Positions 1,733 through 9,876 of a stretch of DNA of 12,557 nt are shown here, piece by piece (the stretch's first letter is position 1; each line of letters begins with the position of its first letter). Below the pieces are notes generated by a model. It did no database searches and was not told where the DNA came from. It saw only the letters and a program-made list of their open reading frames with translations. The position numbers and the translations under genes are program-made. The DNA comes from Candidatus Woesearchaeota archaeon (GTDB taxonomy: Archaea > Nanobdellota > Nanobdellia > Pacearchaeales > GW2011-AR1): the NCBI GenBank assembly GCA_964514585.1, contig CAZETU010000008.1:1-12557 (forward strand), given 5' to 3'.

Positions 1733-2671
1733 TTATCCACCAATATTTTTCAATGAAAGATTTATCAATTCTTTTGTGTCTTCAAAATCCGTTATATTCT
1801 TGATTGTCAATTCCAAATCACCAGTTCCAAAATGTCCGATGTTTCTAACATCTCTTGCTTGTTTTGGCAGTTTTTCTATTTCGTCTGGATTTAATTTTAA
1901 GAAAAGCATTAACTTTTTTTTCTGTGTTTCAATACAAACAAAATTCTGCGTTGTTTTATATGCGATGTAATATTTCTTTGGTGTTTCTTCTATTGAACTA
2001 TCAAGGGTTACAATATATTCTCGAATTTCATTTAATAATTCGGTTAAATCGGCATTTACCTTATTGATATGTTCGTCAATAGCATAAATAGAATTCTTTC
2101 TTGTTTCTGCTGCTTTCTTTCCGGCGGCAACCATTACAGGATTTTTGCCATTGTTTTCAATCGAAGTTTGAGTTCTTGTTTCAGTTCTCTTATAAACCAC
2201 TTCAATACTGATTATTCCATTTTCATAAATCTTGTATTGCCAAAGTTCAATATTTGCACCCATAACTTGAACAGCGTGCAAATCATATTTTTTAAATTCA
2301 GGGGCAATACAAATTACTCTTATATCAGACCAGTCAACTTCAATATTTTCTTTCAGTACATTATTCACAGCTACTTGGAAATCTCCTTTATGGTCTGTAA
2401 TCCAATGTAGATAAAACAAACTTTGATTAATTAAGTCAGATGATGCAACTTTTTTATATTCAATTATTACAGGATTATTATCTTCTGAAATTGCTAATGT
2501 GTCAATTCTTCCAGAATGAATATTTCCAGTCGAAAATTCAGTTGCTATAAATCTACAATTGAAAAAGGTTTCTAAATTTTGTTCAACTAAATTCTGTAAG
2601 TCTTTTTCTAGTTTGAAATCAGTTGGTTTAATTCTGTTTACCTTTTTGTCTTTTATTTCAAATATTGCCAT
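1733..2671 (-). CDS. NucS/DUF91-like PD-(D/E)xK endonuclease domain fused to a C-terminal DUF5655 domain
   Basis: 312 aa. The N-terminal LEKDLQNLVEQN...GRIDTLAISEDNNPVIIEYKK carries the E...ID...ExK nuclease motif. The C-terminal KKYYIAYK...NFVCIETQKKKLMLFLKL...RDVRNIGHFGTGDLELTI is typical of DUF5655. Confidence 0.8.
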   Translation of the reverse strand: MAIFEIKDKKVNRIKPTDFKLEKDLQNLVEQNLETFFNCRFIATEFSTGNIHSGRIDTLAISEDNNPVIIEYKKVASSDLINQSLFYLHWITDHKGDFQVAVNNVLKENIEVDWSDIRVICIAPEFKKYDLHAVQVMGANIELWQYKIYENGIISIEVVYKRTETRTQTSIENNGKNPVMVAAGKKAAETRKNSIYAIDEHINKVNADLTELLNEIREYIVTLDSSIEETPKKYYIAYKTTQNFVCIETQKKKLMLFLKLNPDEIEKLPKQARDVRNIGHFGTGDLELTIKNITDFEDTKELINLSLKNIGG

Positions 2672-2923: not shown

Positions 2924-2986
2924 ACTGCAAGCATATTATATTTATCAATTTCAACCTAAATTTTTTTAATGTAAAGATAAAAAATA

Positions 2987-3018
2987 TTTGGAATTTTAAA
3001 TCATTATCTGTATTTTTG
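2987..3018 (+). promoter_or_regulatory. Bacteroidota housekeeping-sigma promoter for the 174-aa gene
   Basis: TTTG (2987-2990)-N20-TATTTTTG (3011-3018) matches the TTTG-N19-21-TAnnTTTG consensus. Both elements are conserved in the second copy. Confidence 0.75.
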
Positions 3019-3099
3019 GTAAATACAAAAATATAGCCCTTTGTGGCTGTATTTAAGAAAACTAATCAAAATAATTAATTTATTTAAAAAACTTAAGTT

Positions 3100-3624
3100 A
3101 TGGCATTAGACAATTTAATTAAAGTATCGTTTACTGAAGAGGAAATTGGTAAACTAAACAAAAGTATGGAGGAAATAGTAAGTGTATTATCTGGCAAGGT
3201 TATAAACCTAACTCCCGAAGAACGCAGACAGTATGGTAGTATTGGCAATAATACTCAATACTGGATAGATAAAGTAGATACATATATGGTACAAAACCCA
3301 AAGCTTGTGCCTTTTTATTTGAGTAAAGAAGAATTTGACAAAGACAGGTTGGCTCGTAGTATATTTTTAGATTTGATAAAACAATCAAATAGTATTTTAG
3401 AAAGTATGGAAGATACCGGTATGTTGCTAAGTACCGATATTTATCATAATGCATTGGCATTTTACCAAAATGTGCGTTTGGCTGCAAATCAGAATGTGCC
3501 GGGTAGTACAAGCATTTATGAGGATTTGGCAGCACAGTTTCCTGGTCGTCCTGCATCAGTAACAGGCGAACCTGTTCCCGGCGCAGAAGTTTATATTGAG
3601 CAAGAAGACTCCGAAAATAAATAA
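3100..3624 (+). CDS. Conserved hypothetical alpha-helical protein, copy 1 (174 aa)
   Basis: ORF with its own consensus promoter and terminator. Motifs INLTPEERRQYGSIG, NPKLVPFYLSKEEFDKD and DIYHNALAFYQNVRLAANQNVPGSTSIYEDLAAQF resemble a widespread uncharacterised Bacteroidota family (recalled, not searched). No catalytic motif is recognisable. Confidence 0.85.
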   Translation: MALDNLIKVSFTEEEIGKLNKSMEEIVSVLSGKVINLTPEERRQYGSIGNNTQYWIDKVDTYMVQNPKLVPFYLSKEEFDKDRLARSIFLDLIKQSNSILESMEDTGMLLSTDIYHNALAFYQNVRLAANQNVPGSTSIYEDLAAQFPGRPASVTGEPVPGAEVYIEQEDSENK

Positions 3625-3645
3625 TTAAATATCTTATAAAATATT

Positions 3646-3674
3646 AAAGCTCCGAAAATCGGAGCTTTTTTTTT
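3646..3674 (+). terminator. Rho-independent terminator
   Basis: AAAGCTCCGA-AAA-TCGGAGCTTT stem followed by a T9 tract, 21 nt after the stop. Confidence 0.9.
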
Positions 3675-3693
3675 GAAAATAGTTAAATTGCAG

Positions 3694-3945
3694 TAAATAA
3701 GGCATAAAAAACCCTATTAGAACCTATAAAAAGTGGTTGAACAAGCTATAAAAAACCCTCCAATAAGCTATAAAAAGTGGTTCTGAACCTGTAAAAACTC
3801 GTAATAGACTACTTAAAAGTTGGGAATAAGGTGTAAATTATTATCTCTGTTGTTTTCTTAGCTCAATGTTCACGAGATATAGCCTGATAACTATATGATG
3901 AAACTTGGCTGTATCACGAAAGTGTAAAACTATATCACGAAAGTG
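3694..3945 (+). repeat. Non-coding ~21-22-bp periodic array downstream of copy 1
   Basis: TAAAA cores at 3705, 3727, 3749, 3771, 3792 and 3814, and a shorter TAAA at 3834. ATGAAAC at 3898. CAC-GAAA-GTG at 3915 and 3936 (21 bp apart). Confidence 0.8.
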
Positions 3946-3951
3946 AATAAT

Positions 3952-3972
3952 AACTTCAAACTTCTAAGTTCG
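3952..3972. repeat. Short 7-bp tandem repeat
   Basis: AACTTCA AACTTCT AAGTTCG. Confidence 0.5.
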
Positions 3973-4069
3973 TTCTAAAACATTCCGCCCCCACCAACAT
4001 TAATTTTTTCTATTGCTTATACGGGGTTCAACAATTTCATATCTTTCATTAAATTCATAAAAATTAAAT

Positions 4070-4077
4070 TAATTTTG
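4070..4077 (+). promoter_or_regulatory. Possible -7 promoter element for the TonB-dependent receptor operon
   Basis: TAATTTTG fits TAnnTTTG, but there is no good -33 TTTG at the expected distance. It overlaps the GTG at 4077, which favours a start at GTG 4098. Confidence 0.35.
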
Positions 4078-6461
4078 TGCAATTAATTTATACAATAGTG
4101 AATTTATTAAAAAAAATAAGCCTCTCCCTCCTGTTTATTATGCTATTGCATATAGCTTCTGCACAAAAACATACAATTAGCGGATATGTTAGAGACCTTA
4201 ATTCGGGCGAAGACCTTATTGGAGCAAATGTTTATATTAAAGAACTTTCAAAAGGAACAATTACAAATACTTACGGATTTTATTCTATTACAATTCCTGC
4301 CGGCAACTACAGCTTTGCAGTTTCGTTTATTGGATATAAGGATTACACAAAAAAGATTAAATTAGATAAGAATTATAAATTAAATGTTTCAATAGGTGAG
4401 AATATTATCACTACAGGAGAAGTAGTTGTAACAGGTGAACGTCCCGAAGATAATATTGAAAGCACACAAATGGGAGCTATAAAATTGCCTGTTGCAAGTA
4501 TTAAAAAGTTGCCTGCAATTTTTGGCGAAGTAGATATTCTAAAAACTATACAACTACTGCCGGGTGTACAATCGGGTGGAGAAGGTAATGCAGGTTTTTA
4601 TGTAAGAGGTGGCGGTCCCGATCAAAATCTTATTCTTTTAGACGAAGCTGTAGTTTACAATGCATCGCATTTATTTGGGTTTTTCTCGGTTTTTAACTCC
4701 GATGCTGTAAAAGATATTAATTTAATAAAAGGTGGTATGCCTGCACAGTATGGTGGCAGATTATCATCGGTACTTGATATTTCGATGAAAGAAGGCAATA
4801 TGAAAACTTATCATGTTGATGGCGGAATTGGACTTATAGCTTCAAGATTAACGTTTCAGGGTCCAATTAAAAAAGATACTTCTTCATTTATTATTTCGGG
4901 CAGAAGAACATATATAGATATTCTTTCTGAACCTTTTATTAAAAAAACTGCAAAAGCAAAAGGCAGTGGGTATTATTTTTACGATATTAATGCAAAATTT
5001 AATTATCGATTTTCTGATAAAGACAGAATATTTTTAAGCGGGTATTATGGTAAAGATGTTTTTAGTTTTGTGAAAAAGAAAGCCGGATTTGCGGTAAATA
5101 TACCTTGGGGAAATTCTACAGCATCGCTAAGGTGGAATCATTTATTTAACGATAAACTATTTGTAAATACAACTTTTGTTTATAGTGATTATAATTTTGA
5201 GTTTCAGGCAGAGCAAGACGATTTTGAAATGATAATGTTTTCGGGTATAAAAGACCTTAATACAAAAATTGACTTTACTTATTTACCACAAATCAGACAT
5301 AATATTAAATTTGGTATAAATCATATATATCATACTTTCACACCAAGCAGCGCAACAGCAAGAATTGGCGAAACAGAATTTGACACAGGCGATATAATAA
5401 AACAATATGCTCACGAAAGTGCAATATATATTAATGATGATTTTGATCTTACCGACCGATTTAAAATTAGTTTTGGCATACGTGGCTCTCATTTTATGCA
5501 AGTAGGTCCTTTTACAAGATATGTTCTTGACGATTTTGGCTTACATAAGGATACAATTGTATATGCAGCAGGAGAAAATATTGTAGAATATCAACATTTA
5601 GAGCCACGTTTATCTATGCGGTATTCTTTTAATTCAACAACATCAATAAAAGCAGCATATACTCAAAACTATCAGTATATTCATCTTGCGGCTATCTCAT
5701 CGGTTTCTTTACCTACCGATGTTTGGGTTCCGAGCTCCACTTTGGTTAAACCTCAGTTTGGCACTCAATATGCAATTGGATTTTTCAAAAATCTGTTCGA
5801 TAATAAATTTGAAACATCAATAGAATTATATTATAAAAACCTTCAAAATCAAATATCATACAAAGAAGGTATGACCCCCGGCGATGATGCAGGAAATAAT
5901 TCTGATGCTAATTTTACTTTTGGACTTGGAGAATCATACGGAGTAGAATTATTTATTAAAAAGCGAATTGGAAGAACTACCGGCTGGATAGGTTATACAA
6001 TATCAAAAACAACAAGATTATTCGATGAAATTAATAACGGAATAAGATATCCTGCTAAGTACGACAGAACTCACGATTTGTCTGTAATAGCTACTCACGA
6101 AATTAATGACCACTGGTTTGCTTCGTTTATATTTATATACGCAACAGGCAACAGAGCTACAATGACAATAGGCAGATACATGATAGACGGTAGAGTAATT
6201 TCAGAATATGGCACACATAACGGATATCGCATGGATGCATACCACAGAGCTGATGTTTCGGTTACTTACGAAAGAAAAAAGAATAAGAAATTTCATTCAT
6301 CGTGGACATTATCAGTGTATAATCTTTATAATCGCTATAATCCATACTTTATTTATTTCGATACAGAAGGGGATTTATACGACGGCACATTACAAACAAA
6401 AGCATTTCAGGTATCTTTATTTCCTATATTACCATCAATAACATGGAATTTTAAATTTTAG
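4077..6461 (+). CDS. TonB-dependent outer-membrane receptor with N-terminal carboxypeptidase-regulatory-like domain
   Basis: 794 aa. Signal peptide (KKISLSLLFIMLLHIASA), N-domain ISGYVRDLNSGEDLIGANVYI...TITNTYGFYSITIP, plug QLLPGV...FYVRGGGPDQNLILLDEAVVYN...YGGRLSSVLDI, and C-terminal aromatic barrel strand SITWNFKF. The likely start is GTG 4098. Confidence 0.92.
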   Translation: MQLIYTIVNLLKKISLSLLFIMLLHIASAQKHTISGYVRDLNSGEDLIGANVYIKELSKGTITNTYGFYSITIPAGNYSFAVSFIGYKDYTKKIKLDKNYKLNVSIGENIITTGEVVVTGERPEDNIESTQMGAIKLPVASIKKLPAIFGEVDILKTIQLLPGVQSGGEGNAGFYVRGGGPDQNLILLDEAVVYNASHLFGFFSVFNSDAVKDINLIKGGMPAQYGGRLSSVLDISMKEGNMKTYHVDGGIGLIASRLTFQGPIKKDTSSFIISGRRTYIDILSEPFIKKTAKAKGSGYYFYDINAKFNYRFSDKDRIFLSGYYGKDVFSFVKKKAGFAVNIPWGNSTASLRWNHLFNDKLFVNTTFVYSDYNFEFQAEQDDFEMIMFSGIKDLNTKIDFTYLPQIRHNIKFGINHIYHTFTPSSATARIGETEFDTGDIIKQYAHESAIYINDDFDLTDRFKISFGIRGSHFMQVGPFTRYVLDDFGLHKDTIVYAAGENIVEYQHLEPRLSMRYSFNSTTSIKAAYTQNYQYIHLAAISSVSLPTDVWVPSSTLVKPQFGTQYAIGFFKNLFDNKFETSIELYYKNLQNQISYKEGMTPGDDAGNNSDANFTFGLGESYGVELFIKKRIGRTTGWIGYTISKTTRLFDEINNGIRYPAKYDRTHDLSVIATHEINDHWFASFIFIYATGNRATMTIGRYMIDGRVISEYGTHNGYRMDAYHRADVSVTYERKKNKKFHSSWTLSVYNLYNRYNPYFIYFDTEGDLYDGTLQTKAFQVSLFPILPSITWNFKF

Positions 6462-6488
6462 TTTTAATTTTGCTTTTCAAAACAATTA

Positions 6489-8351
6489 TTGATGACAAAA
6501 AAAATATCTCTTTACTTTTTAAAACAATACATCTTTTGGATGCTTGTGTTTGTTATTGGAAGAGCTGTTTTTATTATTGCAAACTTAAATGAATTAAACA
6601 ACACAGGTATTGGCGAAATTCTTTTAACATTTTGGTATGCCATTTATCTCGATATTTCTACTGCATGTTACCTAATGGCTTTTCCTTTCCTTTTATTACT
6701 TATTCAATCCTTGCTAAATTTTAAAATATTAAATACAATAAATCTCTACTACACCTATTTAATGATATTTGTTTTTGCCGTAATAACTTCAAGCGAAATT
6801 GGAATTTATGAAGAATGGGGAACAAAACTAAACTATAAAGCACTTACATATCTCAAACATCCTGACGAAATTGTGCGTACTGCAAAAATATCGGTTATGA
6901 TTACAGGTATTCTTCTAATAATATTCCAAACCTTTGTTGGCATTTTTCTTTATCGCAAATTTGTACATCTTAAAAAAATTGAAGCTAAAAGAAACTATAT
7001 ATTCTCTGTTGCATTTTTAATAATTATTCCGGCTTTTATGGTTCTTGGTATTAGAGGCGGAATACAAGAAATTCCTGTTAAACAAAGTGATGTTTACTTC
7101 TCTAAAAATCATTTTTTAAATAAATCTGCCGTTAATTCAGGTTGGAACCTTATTCATAGTATTTCTAAAAATAAAAAGTACATGAATGAAAATCCTTATA
7201 AATATTACAATTATAATGATGCAAAAACACTTGTCAATCAACTTTATTATGTTGAAAAAGACACTACAATAAAAATTTTAACTACTAATAAACCCAACAT
7301 TGTATTTTTAATACTTGAAAGTTGGTCTGCTGATATTGTGCCTGCATGTGGTGGCGACCTGGGTATTACTCCTCGTTTTGACAAACTTGTTGCCGATGGA
7401 TTGGTATTTTCAAACATTTATGGAACAGGTGCCAGATCAGATCAGGGAATTCCTGCCATATTAAGTGGGTTTCCTGCTCAACCAACAACATCAATAATAG
7501 AACAACCAAATAAGGCAAAGAAACTGCCATGCATATCAAAACAATTTCAGGAAAATGGATATCACACATCTTTTCATTTTGGCGGTCAACTAAATTATGG
7601 AAATATTAAAGGATATTTATACGACCACGACTTTGATTTTCTTTTTGAAGAAAAAGATTTTAACAGCAAATTACCAAAAGGACGACTTGGTTATCATGAT
7701 GAATACCTCTTTGACCAATTTTTAAATGATTTAACCACATTTAAAGAACCTTTTTTGGCTGTTGCATTTACTTTAAGTTCACATTCTCCATACGACCAGC
7801 CAATGCCGGAAATCCTACACTGGGGTGACGATGAAAAGGATTACATAAACTCGGCATACTACACCGATAGCTGCATTGGCGATTTTTTCACTAAAGCAAA
7901 ACAACAAGATTGGTACAAGAACACATTATTTATTATAATTGCAGACCATAGTCATAGCACACCTCGTAGCACAAGTTTTGTTTCTCCTGAATACAAAAAG
8001 ATACCAATGTTATTTTATGGAAATGTTTTAAAAGATGAATTTAAAGGATCTGTTTACAATAAGATATGCTCACAAACCGATATCCCCTCTACCCTGCTTT
8101 CACAATTAGGTATTTCAAAAAAGCAATATACATGGAGCAGAAACTTATTTAACCCAAATATAAAAGAATTTGCATATTACGCTTTTAAAGATGGCGTTGG
8201 CTGGGTTGTTGACAGCAACCAGTTTGCTTATAGTCATCAAGACGAAAGATATTATATTAATCGCTTTACTCCTGCCGCCAATAAAGATAGCATAATTAAA
8301 GATGGCAAAAGCTATCTGCAAGTTCTGTTTGAAGAATATTTGGATTATTAA
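6489..8351 (+). CDS. LTA synthase family / sulfatase-like phosphoglycerol transferase (LtaS/MdoB-like)
   Basis: About five N-terminal TM helices, then an alkaline-phosphatase-superfamily domain: PNIVFLILES, GTGARSDQGIPAILSG (nucleophile position), TLSSHSPY and FIIIADHSH. The likely start is ATG 6492. It lies 27-30 nt from the receptor gene, so they are probably co-transcribed. Confidence 0.9.
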   Translation: MMTKKISLYFLKQYIFWMLVFVIGRAVFIIANLNELNNTGIGEILLTFWYAIYLDISTACYLMAFPFLLLLIQSLLNFKILNTINLYYTYLMIFVFAVITSSEIGIYEEWGTKLNYKALTYLKHPDEIVRTAKISVMITGILLIIFQTFVGIFLYRKFVHLKKIEAKRNYIFSVAFLIIIPAFMVLGIRGGIQEIPVKQSDVYFSKNHFLNKSAVNSGWNLIHSISKNKKYMNENPYKYYNYNDAKTLVNQLYYVEKDTTIKILTTNKPNIVFLILESWSADIVPACGGDLGITPRFDKLVADGLVFSNIYGTGARSDQGIPAILSGFPAQPTTSIIEQPNKAKKLPCISKQFQENGYHTSFHFGGQLNYGNIKGYLYDHDFDFLFEEKDFNSKLPKGRLGYHDEYLFDQFLNDLTTFKEPFLAVAFTLSSHSPYDQPMPEILHWGDDEKDYINSAYYTDSCIGDFFTKAKQQDWYKNTLFIIIADHSHSTPRSTSFVSPEYKKIPMLFYGNVLKDEFKGSVYNKICSQTDIPSTLLSQLGISKKQYTWSRNLFNPNIKEFAYYAFKDGVGWVVDSNQFAYSHQDERYYINRFTPAANKDSIIKDGKSYLQVLFEEYLDY

Positions 8352-8361
8352 CTAAAAAGAA

Positions 8362-8433
8362 GTGCCTAAAATTAAAAATGCCTAAAATGCCTAAAGTTAT
8401 TTTACTTCGGTCTTCTGACTTCGGTCTTCTAAC
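8362..8433. repeat. Cluster of short tandem repeats
   Basis: TGCCTAAA at 8363, 8379 and 8388. ACTTCGGTCTTCT at 8404 and 8418 (14-bp period). Confidence 0.8.
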
Positions 8434-8443
8434 TCTTTTTATA

Positions 8444-8875
8444 CACTGTCGTGATATAGTTGCACACTGCCGTGATATAGCAATACTGTTTCATCTAATC
8501 AACAATTAGTTTCATGCAAACATCAAATTGTTTCATGCGATTACCAAACTGTTTCATATAATCATCAACATATTCCATCCAAAAAAGAACTCGTTCAGAA
8601 CTACTTTTTACTACTTATTCCCAACTTTTATGTAGTATCTAAGTACTTTTAAGTAGTCTTGATACTACTTTTTACTGCTTATTTCCGACTTTTACTAGTA
8701 TTTAAGTACTTTTAAGTAGTCCTGATACTACTTTTTACTACTTATTTCCGACTTTTACTAGTATCTAAGTACCTTTTACTAGTATCTAAGTACTTTTTAC
8801 TAGTATTTAAGTACTTTTAATTAGTCCTGATATTGCTTTTTACTAGTACGTATACTGGTTTTTGTGTCTTATTTA
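8444..8875 (-). repeat. Non-coding ~21-bp periodic array downstream of copy 2
   Basis: Twelve TTTTA cores end at 8610-8842 (mean spacing 21.1). A 63-bp tandem duplication covers 8642-8704/8705-8767 (3 mismatches). GTTTCAT at 8488, 8509, 8530 and 8551. CAC-N4-GTG at 8444 and 8465. The 63-bp repeat has stops in all six frames. Confidence 0.9.
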
Positions 8876-8896
8876 CTGCAATTTAACTATTTTCAC

Positions 8897-8924
8897 AAAA
8901 AAAAGCCCCGATTTTCGGAGCTTT
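8897..8924 (-). terminator. Rho-independent terminator of copy 2
   Basis: Minus strand reads AAAGCTCCGA-AAA-TCGGGGCTTT plus a T8 tract. The one stem change (A>G) turns U-A into a U-G wobble. Confidence 0.88.
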
Positions 8925-8945
8925 AATATTTTATAAGATATTTAA

Positions 8946-9130
8946 TTATTTAACGTGAGCTTGGGGATAAGAAAGAAACATAAAAACAATTGTCATTTTG
9001 AGTGGATTTTAGGAGTGAAACGGAGAAAATTTGTATCGAAAAATAGAAAATGATTTGTTTTCGATACAAAATTCTTGCAGAATTTCACTCAAACTGACAC
9101 CAATTTCTTAAATCAAACTCTCGTTATTTA
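8946..9130. mobile_element. Palindromic MITE-like or attC-like insert (171 bp between 7-bp direct repeats TTATTTA)
   Basis: Absent from copy 1. TTATTTA at 8946-8952 and 9124-9130. Ends TAACGTGAGCTTG/CAAACTCTCGTTA pair 11/13. Inner stems include TTTGTATCGAAAA (9030-9042)/TTTTCGATACAAA (9058-9070). Confidence 0.8.
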
Positions 9131-9648
9131 TTTTCGGAGTCTTCTTGCTCAATATAAACTTCTGCGCCGGGAACAGGTTCGCCTGTTACTGATGCAGGAC
9201 GACCAGGAAACTGTGCTGCCAAATCCTCATAAATGCTTGTACTACCCGGCACATTCTGATTTGCAGCCAAACGCACATTTTGGTAAAATGCCAATGCATT
9301 ATGATAAATATCGGTACTTAGCAACATACCGGTATCTTCCATACTTTCTAAAATACTATTTGATTGTTTTATCAAATCTAAAAATATACTACGAGCCAAC
9401 CTGTCTTTGTCAAATTCTTCTTTACTCAAATAAAAAGGCACAAGCTTTGGGTTTTGTACCATATATGTATCTACTTTATCTATCCAGTATTGAGTATTAT
9501 TGCCAATACTACCATACTGTCTGCGTTCTTCGGGAGTTAGGTTTATAACCTTGCCAGATAATACACTTACTATTTCCTCCATACTTTTGTTTAGTTTACC
9601 AATTTCCTCTTCAGTAAACGATACTTTAATTAAATTGTCTAATGCCAT
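9124..9648 (-). CDS. Conserved hypothetical alpha-helical protein, copy 2 (identical to 3100-3624)
   Basis: Nucleotide sequence is identical to copy 1 over all 525 bp. Confidence 0.85.
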   Translation of the reverse strand: MALDNLIKVSFTEEEIGKLNKSMEEIVSVLSGKVINLTPEERRQYGSIGNNTQYWIDKVDTYMVQNPKLVPFYLSKEEFDKDRLARSIFLDLIKQSNSILESMEDTGMLLSTDIYHNALAFYQNVRLAANQNVPGSTSIYEDLAAQFPGRPASVTGEPVPGAEVYIEQEDSENK

Positions 9649-9729
9649 AACTTAAGTTTTTTAAATAAATTAATAATTTTGATTATTTCTCTTAAATACA
9701 GCCACAAATGGCTATATTCTTGTATTTAC

Positions 9730-9761
9730 CAAAAATACAGATAATGATTTAAATTACCAAA
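9730..9761 (-). promoter_or_regulatory. Bacteroidota promoter for copy 2
   Basis: Minus strand TTTG (9761-9758)-N20-TATTTTTG (9737-9730). Confidence 0.75.
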
Positions 9762-9876
9762 TATTTTTTTATTAATTCTGCGTTTTTTTGTTCTCCTTTT
9801 TTTTGTTACTTTTGCTAAACTAAATACTTATAACTATAAGAGAAATAAAAAACACTACGCATTTTAGCGGAGTGTT

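Follow-up and report, generated by a model that had tools for sequence, protein, structure and literature searches.

A chromosomal Bacteroidota module of an orphan helical protein gene and a downstream array of 21-22-bp units, a possible helically phased DNA platform

Introduction

By analogy, the closest described precedents of the system reported here are the iterons with their Rep proteins (R6K, RK2, pSC101 and P1 type) and the ParR-parC (plasmid R1, pSK41), omega-heptad and StbA-stbS arrays. There, protein oligomer geometry dictates how the sites are spaced on the DNA, while the specificity drifts. The present study concerns a stretch of 12,557 bp (hereafter the window), which is the entire contig C8 (CAZETU010000008.1) of a 1.04-Mb metagenome-assembled genome (MAG). 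The window carries, in two inverted copies, a 174-codon gene for an orphan helical protein, and each copy is followed by a non-coding array of units repeated every 21-22 bp. The same pairing of gene and array was found at homologous loci throughout the genera sampled, and we tentatively read the array as a helically phased DNA platform.

The module shares with iterons the unit length (17-22 bp) and the spacing of about 22 bp on one face of the helix, as indicated by a period of 21-22 bp in 47/47 arrays and helical phasing in 88% of loci. It also shares the locus-specific sequence, the position beside the cognate gene, the direct and inverted sets and the variable copy number. The protein, however, is acidic, all-helical and about 160 aa long, with neither the winged-helix Rep fold nor membership of a Rep family; DnaA boxes are absent, as are adjoining genes for replication or partition, and the loci are chromosomal, with 1-6 per genome. 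In the ParR-parC, omega and StbA systems, a small dimeric protein recognises a short motif and forms a cooperative superhelical nucleoprotein structure on direct or inverted units, and the likeness lies in the gene beside a helically phased short-repeat array. Unlike those systems, the present one has no partner NTPase (ParM, ParA, TubZ) among 80 loci and is not found on plasmids, its arrays follow the gene instead of preceding it, and the gene's own promoter has no copy of the motif.

Other systems pair a protein gene with repeats of a different kind. Type III toxin-antitoxin loci have 2-5.5 near-identical repeats of 34-45 nt upstream of the gene of a basic endoribonuclease. The present module resembles them (ToxIN, CptIN, TenpIN, AbiQ) in that a protein of about 170 aa adjoins tandem repeats, with a terminator between the two, and in its multi-copy, patchy occurrence, its defence neighbourhoods and repeats cognate to each paralogue. 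It differs in having 6-25 degenerate repeats of 21-22 bp downstream of the gene, an acidic helical protein and no strand-specific folding advantage. The ToxN/AbiQ fold was found neither by Pfam and PADLOC nor in the fold searches, and the AlphaFold2 model is all-helical. In a CRISPR array, identical direct repeats of 23-47 bp are separated by unique spacers of about the same length. A conserved leader followed by a variable array beside a protein gene, with strain-dependent content, is common to both. The arrays described here, however, show no alternation of repeat and spacer, have a period of 21-22 bp instead of 55 bp or more, and consist of units related by duplication and drift. No Cas family was detected by Pfam and PADLOC in the open reading frames (ORFs) of the window or by neighbour clustering in the 80 loci, in agreement with an earlier interpretation of the window from its letters alone (the sequence-only reading), which had set CRISPR aside. 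In repetitive extragenic palindromic (REP) and bacterial interspersed mosaic elements (BIME), palindromic units flank the gene of an IS200-like Y1 transposase (RAYT). By contrast, our loci include only one cluster (two Epilithonimonas loci) with a Y1_Tnp gene after the array, and the family protein has no HUH motif.

Full-text literature searches found no published account of the protein family or of the gene-array pairing, and the sole partial analogue was BrickBuilt of Porphyromonas gingivalis. BrickBuilt is an intergenic tandem array of imperfect 23-nt units with a conserved leader and tail and variable copy number, often beside genes for type IX secretion system (T9SS) cargo and DUF805 proteins; it is one dispersed repeat family with 19 copies per genome and inverted-repeat ends, and has no associated protein gene (PMC4596501). 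A conserved leader and trailer are also present in the clade of the window. The arrays described here, however, are private to their loci and tied to a protein family, and those of paralogues within one genome are unrelated. The gene-plus-array module thus appears to be undescribed.

Results and Discussion

The array accompanies the gene

Eighty homologous loci were taken from species genomes of Chryseobacterium, Aquimarina, Capnocytophaga, Epilithonimonas, Tannerella, Mesonia, Taibaiella, Chitinophagaceae and Ignavibacteria, and from several MAGs. A locus was scored as phased when adenine or thymine showed a periodicity of 10.2-11.3 bp above the 95th percentile of shuffles in any 200-bp segment within 700 bp downstream of the gene. 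By this test 66/75 loci were positive downstream (88%), compared with 14% upstream (Mann-Whitney p = 2e-19, a value that overstates independence since the loci are related). The signal was seen again in every genus sampled, and three of the failures are loci in which insertions push the array beyond 700 bp. Autocorrelation of base identity in the 600 bp downstream gave peaks at a lag of 21 or 22 (also at 42-44 and 63-66), with z > 3 at lag 21/22 in 63% of 76 loci and in 1% of the upstream controls. The sequence-only reading had staked its proposal on homologues having such downstream arrays, and on this point it was right.

The pairing extends to distant members of the family. Arrays are present even at paralogues whose match to the family profile is as weak as E ~1e-14 to 1e-25. 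Where one genome holds several divergent paralogues, as with the five of Aquimarina longa and the four of Capnocytophaga cynodegmi, every paralogue has an array of its own, and the unit sequences are unrelated. The unit of locus L103 is likewise confined to its own locus within genome G063. About half of the still more distant subfamilies have strict 21-bp arrays (L128-L135). An intrinsic terminator lies between gene and array in 33/78 loci, the window included. At one locus (L115, G351:C45:274300-277400) a tandem pair of paralogous genes, 107 bp apart, is followed by one joint array of about 25 units with a AAAATTTT core every 21 bp.

The period is held constant while the unit sequence is replaced

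Of the 47 arrays, 18 have units of 21 bp and 29 have units of 22 bp, with three-unit-lag estimates of 21.0-22.3 bp. The arrays are 100-550 bp long and contain 6-25 degenerate repeats. Their unit sequences differ between genera, between paralogues of one genome and even beside identical proteins, and what recurs is limited to short punctuation. The clade of the window and many others have T-AAAA(A)-G/C, the arrays of Chryseobacterium have CTT-N4-AAG, AAAATTTT cores mark the 'HDYDNY' subfamily in two different genomes, and a unit of the AAAACCNCYTCTGAGRNGGTT type was found again in three unrelated MAGs. The period is thus held constant while the unit sequence is unrelated between lineages. On this ground the proposal that the period is the selected feature holds.

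In most units a second, weaker A/T patch lies half a unit after the first, so that the compositional period is one helical turn. The one property that the whole family keeps is a unit of exactly two helical turns with one-turn A/T phasing, a mark of sites aligned along one face of the DNA, of intrinsic curvature, or of both. Many units contain short palindromes around motifs such as TTCTGAA. In Chryseobacterium, Chitinophagaceae and Tannerella, units in one orientation are followed by inverted units, giving two half-arrays. The units are contiguous, with a mutual similarity of 65-95%. The sequence-only reading had named decayed heptad-repeat ORFs as the observation that would count against it; they are ruled out by the 22-bp periods (29/47 arrays) and by stops in all frames.

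It is also conceivable that the array is a functionless minisatellite, that is, slippage-prone tandem DNA kept by descent, like repeats of the BrickBuilt type, with no selected role. Strains do differ by whole units, apparently through unequal recombination, the higher-order repeats of 42-66 bp found in the arrays are typical of satellites, and arrays are missing from some subfamilies. Drift, however, would not keep the period while replacing the sequence, and the period of 21-22 bp and the phasing recur with unrelated sequences across paralogues, across classes of the phylum and in Ignavibacteria. The units, moreover, are not dispersed in the genome. We regard this explanation as very improbable.

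Unit number and unit content vary between strains

Loci L003 and L004 have the array of copy 1 plus six extra units (12 vs 6). This difference appears to be explained by unequal recombination between two units with a common AAAAACTCGTAA. Locus L013, from another MAG, encodes a protein that is 100% identical and has a promoter, leader and trailer of the copy-2 type; its 11 units, however, are of a different type (AAAAGTAGGGCAAAGCCTAGTT). Identity there is 99.6% over the gene and about 82% over the leader, after which no alignment is possible. Contigs with identical protein and array part right after the trailer, L003 leading to a gene for a TonB-dependent receptor (TBDR) and L004, L008, L009 and L012 to a different, convergent gene (FG-GAP).

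The sequence-only reading had held that the array changes far faster than the gene. Unit number does vary between near-identical strains, but part of the contrast between array and gene may come from gene conversion or recent duplication of the gene. Since the synonymous sites of the two window copies are identical and identity drops exactly at the gene end, rapid mutation of the array need not follow. Homogenisation or recent spread of the gene would fit at least as well as hypermutation of the array.

A different interpretation of the turnover is a self-contained genetic system without described precedent, in which the orphan protein and its array belong together as cognates and the units are actively written, exchanged or recombined. 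The array would then be a rapidly diversifying element of specificity or memory. Its logic would be like that of CRISPR, toxin-antitoxin or defence modules and unlike that of a passive operator. The idea is compatible with the patchy multi-copy spread, with the location near defence islands and cassettes, and with the wholesale exchange of units next to a gene and leader that stay the same; we nevertheless judge it quite improbable.

The array as DNA or as RNA

Three roles had been offered for the array from the sequence: a two-helical-turn platform for the protein, a processed repeat RNA, and a recombining library of units. The RNA alternative deserves the fullest consideration. It supposes that the array is transcribed, by read-through or from a promoter in the leader, into short hairpins with A-rich linkers. 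The transcript would be processed to units of about 21-22 nt, or would serve as a multi-site sponge or partner of the protein, like the RNAs of type III toxin-antitoxin systems or CsrB. Many units do contain an A-run with a short hairpin. In the clade of the window the leader TTTG-N18-20-TAAATAAG loosely resembles a Bacteroidota promoter and is kept while the units are not. The sense strand is A-rich in 17/25 non-Chryseobacterium arrays, and in L022, L051, L018 and L073 no terminator intervenes and the array begins at the stop codon or close to it. The patchy, multi-copy occurrence beside defence genes also resembles that of toxin-antitoxin modules.

Against this, the sense strand gives the better RNA fold in only 16/47 arrays, so that folding energy shows no strand bias. 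Many units have no hairpin, and the majority unit of L022 consists of two half-sites that are non-complementary. Head-to-head half-arrays make no sense as RNA units, whereas they are typical of protein-binding sites. A terminator stands ahead of the array in the 33/78 loci mentioned above, the protein is acidic, and no Rfam family matched the arrays of the window or of 11 loci, which disposes of a known RNA family. We consider a repeat RNA unlikely. Because there is no strand bias in folding, units without hairpins occur, half-arrays are inverted, terminators intervene and Rfam gives no match, a role at the level of DNA is favoured, and we infer that the array acts as DNA. Among the three roles offered, the two-helical-turn DNA platform best fits the evidence from folding, half-arrays and phasing.

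Directly past the arrays of two loci, Rfam matches were recorded, a DUF805b motif (48 bits) at L073:4870-4905 in Capnocytophaga stomatis and a c4-2 RNA (71 bits) at L080:5123-5200 in Taibaiella soli. An array of Bacteroidota -7 promoter boxes, or sigma sponge, was also considered and rejected; TAnnTTTG is not enriched (6 observed vs 6.8 +/- 2.5 expected).

The protein family

The family comprises 118 close homologues of about 160 aa, all from Bacteroidota, and 3,253 clusters at 50% identity (E <= 0.001). In an even draw of the phylum, 25/301 genomes (~8%) carry it, with 1-6 copies each and some pseudogenes. No copy was found by tblastn in 72,556 plasmids, 50,697 phage records and the IMG/VR viral contigs. 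From this patchy spread and the absence of plasmid and phage copies, the family is chromosomal, accessory and multi-copy.

Pfam, NCBIfam, PHROG and PADLOC gave no match to the protein, and a profile search of the PDB sequences found no relative. The sequence-only reading had suggested structure prediction followed by Foldseek. An AlphaFold2 model built on 29 homologues was confident (pLDDT 87); it is wholly helical with a 55-residue helix at 76-130, an extended and conserved N-terminus and a disordered tail. The fold comparison yielded no relative; the matches were of the generic long-helix kind only, and the best values were E 0.26 for Foldseek against the PDB and Z 5.9 for an exhaustive VIA-align search. 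Matches in the ESM Atlas were solely to unnamed Bacteroidota clusters. DUF5053 of Pfam recurs weakly in 9/29 members (best E 0.018, under threshold) and is uninformative. The N-terminus resembles a ribbon-helix-helix (RHH) domain by eye (extended at 1-12, then a helix), but the likeness found no support; neither the AlphaFold2 model of residues 1-76 nor the profile search of the PDB sequences gave an RHH match, and a weak PcfF match covers residues 52-106 and not the N-terminus.

The isoelectric point (pI) of the window protein is 4.55, and the family median is 5.2. Despite the net acidic charge, about ten basic positions are conserved, among them K33, R42, K58, K81, R86 and R126. A word search found no fused or longer forms of the protein; two long representatives have no Pfam domain, and one of these looks like a read-through into a T9SS cargo gene.

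A possible mechanism

These results can be brought together in a tentative reading, according to which the array is a platform of helically phased DNA in the chromosome and its binder is probably the protein encoded beside it. The window has two copies of a conserved two-part module of the Bacteroidota chromosome, in which the gene of an orphan helical protein (about 160 aa) is followed by the non-coding array. Each unit corresponds to two turns of B-DNA with an A/T-rich patch per turn, which places equivalent positions on one face of the helix. The data establish the module with its period, phasing, position and non-coding nature, as well as its conservation across paralogues and its varying unit number. 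On this reading the array would be a helically phased, probably curved, multi-site platform on which protein oligomers assemble side by side.

The most economical binder would be the protein encoded next door, because it is always present, because paralogues have private arrays and because one subfamily keeps its core across genomes. It probably dimerises via the 55-residue helix. Recognition is probably limited to a short punctuation motif, such as T-AAAA(A)-G in the clade of the window or AAAATTTT in the other subfamily, so that the remainder of the unit would be free to drift and the unit number free to shift by unequal recombination. That the adjacent protein binds the array, and that the output is transcriptional, we hold less firmly than the role of the array as DNA.

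The next gene is co-directional in 37/42 detected arrays, and its start codon lies at a median distance of about 200 bp from the array end. Since this distance is usually 100-300 bp, the complex would sit just upstream of the promoter of the next gene and could set, insulate or silence its expression. A transcriptional or insulating output is thus suggested by the position of the array. The module can nevertheless do without a downstream target, because copy 2 and the contigs of the L004 type have no co-directional gene after the array.

Besides these loci, several facts weigh against the proposed platform and its binder. The protein is acidic, and library, profile and fold searches revealed no recognisable DNA-binding fold or family in it. 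Identical proteins occur beside arrays whose units have only an A-run in common. Six copies of one subfamily (MPY) in G231 show no array. Housekeeping genes, such as those for methylmalonyl-CoA mutase and a class II aminoacyl-tRNA synthetase, are also found downstream. The A-richness of the sense strand speaks for RNA, and A-rich linkers with A-rich hairpin loops could also yield the adenine periodicity of half a unit. Finally, there is no array-type motif in the 250 bp upstream of the gene and hence no sign of autoregulation, and an autoregulatory operator was rejected on this ground.

Layout of the window

The features of the window are listed in Table 1. Between the two inverted gene copies lie the TBDR gene and a gene for a sulfatase/lipoteichoic-acid-synthase-like protein. 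The coding sequences are identical over 525/525 nt, as the sequence-only reading had noted, and every motif and shared piece that it had listed was located where it had placed them. Upstream, 121 bp of the two copies differ at 7 positions. Its unit counts of 7 and 12 were essentially right, the recount giving 6 for copy 1 and 13 for copy 2. Its placement of the array just past the terminator of the gene describes copy 1 but not copy 2, where an insert of 171 bp separates the stop codon from terminator and array.

Table 1. Features of the window, with coordinates, strand and the observation on which each rests.
Feature	Position	Strand	Basis or remark
Promoter (upstream) region, copy 1	2979-3099	+	Inverted repeat I1 (2979-3624 / 9124-9769), common to copy 2; homology boundary at 2979
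Gene copy 1, 174-aa acidic all-helical orphan protein with 55-residue helix (76-130)	3100-3624	+	ORF; AlphaFold2 model
Intrinsic terminator (hairpin and T-run), copy 1	3646-3675	+	Sequence; repeats D11, I3
Leader (GAAAATAGTTAAATTGCAGTAAATAAGG...), kept and in phase with the array	3676-3705	+	Common to copy 1, copy 2, L003, L004 and L013 despite different internal units
Array 1, six units of 21-22 bp, each opened by an A4-6 run	3706-3835	+	Unit alignment; adenine periodicity
Trailer	3832-3858	+	Near-identical strains part ways directly after ...TCTCTGTTGTTT
One ATGAAAC box (3898) and two TATCAC-GAAA-GTG boxes 21 bp apart	3898-3945	+	Present in copy 2 and L013, not in L004
TonB-dependent receptor gene, co-directional, downstream of array 1	4077-6461	+	Pfam Plug, TonB_dep_Rec_b-barrel, CarbopepD_reg_2
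Gene copy 2, identical to copy 1	9124-9648	-	Sequence comparison
Upstream region, copy 2	9649-9769	-	Repeat I1; L013 matches as far as 9822
Insert of 171 bp, stop codon to terminator of copy 2	8953-9123	-	Missing from copy 1 and L013
Terminator, copy 2	8897-8925	-	Repeat I3
Array 2, 13 A-run units of 20-23 bp, 63-bp higher-order repeat	8587-8863	-	Repeats D3, D5
ATGAAAC box repeated four times every 21 bp, and beyond it a pair of TATCAC-GNNA-GTG boxes with the same spacing	8444-8557	-	Repeat D4

The unit spacing in array 1 is 21.8 +/- 0.4 bp, and two in-phase leader units precede the array; in array 2 the mean is 21.2 +/- 1.2 bp. Adenine shows a periodicity of 10.5-10.75 bp that is 5.6 times (copy 1) and 4.1 times (copy 2) the maximum of 20 shuffles. 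Read from the gene, copy 2 has the order stop codon, insert, terminator and leader as in copy 1, A-run units and boxes. Its ATGAAAC boxes at 8488, 8509, 8530 and 8551 are spaced by exactly 21 bp. The sequence TATCACGNNAGTG occurs twice per copy, 21 bp apart, at 3912 and 3933 in copy 1 and at 8444 and 8465 in copy 2. Three pieces are common to both arrays (3807, 3815 and 3772 vs 8645/8708, 8614 and 8593). The true start of the TBDR gene is likely the GTG at 4098.

The insert is self-complementary, and L013 has no counterpart of it although otherwise 99.6% identical; in appearance it is a small mobile element or a solo recombination element. The inverted duplication of promoter, gene, terminator and array (2979-9769) has a layout like that of a composite transposon. 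No transposase or recombinase gene was found in the window.

It is worth noting that the window contig alone, among the whole 1.04-Mb assembly, carries a T9SS C-terminal sorting domain, and that the family protein is absent from 60/60 relatives of the source genome (all 0.5-1.2 Mb). Because of these two facts, and because the homologues are all from Bacteroidota, the contig is probably mis-binned. Near-identical contigs come from metagenomes of the saline Antarctic-lake type.

Neighbouring genes

Neighbour clustering across the 80 loci revealed no conserved neighbouring gene of any kind. In Chryseobacterium the downstream genes encode McrBC or GmrSD restriction systems, and Type I restriction-modification genes with an XRE-type helix-turn-helix (HTH) gene lie upstream. 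Other downstream genes include those for T9SS cargo, an ECF sigma factor, a subtilase and a GH5 cellulase, so that the gene after the array may have almost any function. The arrays of Chryseobacterium are separated from whichever cargo is present by a conserved promoter-like element, which consists of TTTACGYTTTCCCGTAAG and, after it, TTTTTATTATTATTG. It was seen in L023, L025, L028, L036, L041, L044, L045, L059, L071 and others, about 300-800 bp past the stop codon, with McrBC, GmrSD, another AAA_5 protein or T9SS cargo behind it. This element may be a portable promoter or operator at an exchange point of defence genes.

These neighbourhoods bear on a further explanation, in which the adjacent protein is not the binder and the phased, curved DNA is used by a factor of the host, either a nucleoid protein or RNA polymerase, or is a hotspot of recombination or gene exchange. 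Gene and array would then travel together as one inherited or cassette-like unit that borders variable gene content. Near-identical strains differ in gene content past the array, with the breakpoint right after the trailer. The Chryseobacterium cargo (McrBC, GmrSD, T9SS cargo) is swapped behind one conserved element, attC-like sites with a cassette-like array are present at 48-2713 of the window, and the protein has no DNA-binding signature. On the other hand, the attC-like box ACATTGTTR is not enriched near modules elsewhere (12 matches/586 kb, by a crude motif test), no recombinase is consistently adjacent across the 80 loci, and the cores specific to paralogues and subfamilies are better explained by a co-evolving cognate binder. 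We therefore think it improbable, at about the level of the RNA alternative, that the array serves only a host factor or gene exchange.

The attC-like sites are imperfect palindromes at 48-117, 1079-1213 and about 2700-2760 (GCTAAC...ACATTGTTAGC, GCTAACGG...ACATTGTTGTAGGGC, GCCCTACAAC). They separate minus-strand genes in what resembles an integron cassette array, transcribed away from gene copy 1. The sites at 48-117 and 1079-1213 are on the opposite strand and outside the module. Among the genes of this region, the DUF5655 protein encoded at 1733-2671 (-) matches the PADLOC candidate defence family PDC-S18 (E = 1e-113), and the DUF6155 gene at 1218-1727 is its partner.

At 17 loci of Chryseobacterium the gene has a divergent neighbour, an XRE-type HTH protein of 136 aa with a coiled coil at its C-terminus. 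At these loci (L024, L025, L065 and L082 among them) it is encoded on the opposite strand, just upstream, and it matches PADLOC HTH_VI (E = 2e-6). HTH_3 proteins take the same or a downstream position in other loci. The XRE-type protein is an alternative candidate for the array binder in Chryseobacterium.

Implications

A family of about 3,250 clusters, present in about one in twelve sampled genomes of its phylum, is without annotation, and we found neither a fold relative nor any literature for it; DNA geometry is the sole conserved property of its non-coding partner. The arrays explain contig breaks at such loci, and the pairing offers a cheap route to the annotation of thousands of loci now recorded as a hypothetical protein with a tandem repeat. 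Should the array turn out to function as RNA or in recombination, the module would be still further from the described systems. If, instead, the protein binds the array, it would represent a new DNA-binding fold, and the array a new chromosomal class of phased nucleoprotein platform. Such a platform would precede accessory genes, for example those of restriction systems, T9SS cargo and TonB receptors, and little is known of the proteins that organise the nucleoid or silence genes in this phylum.

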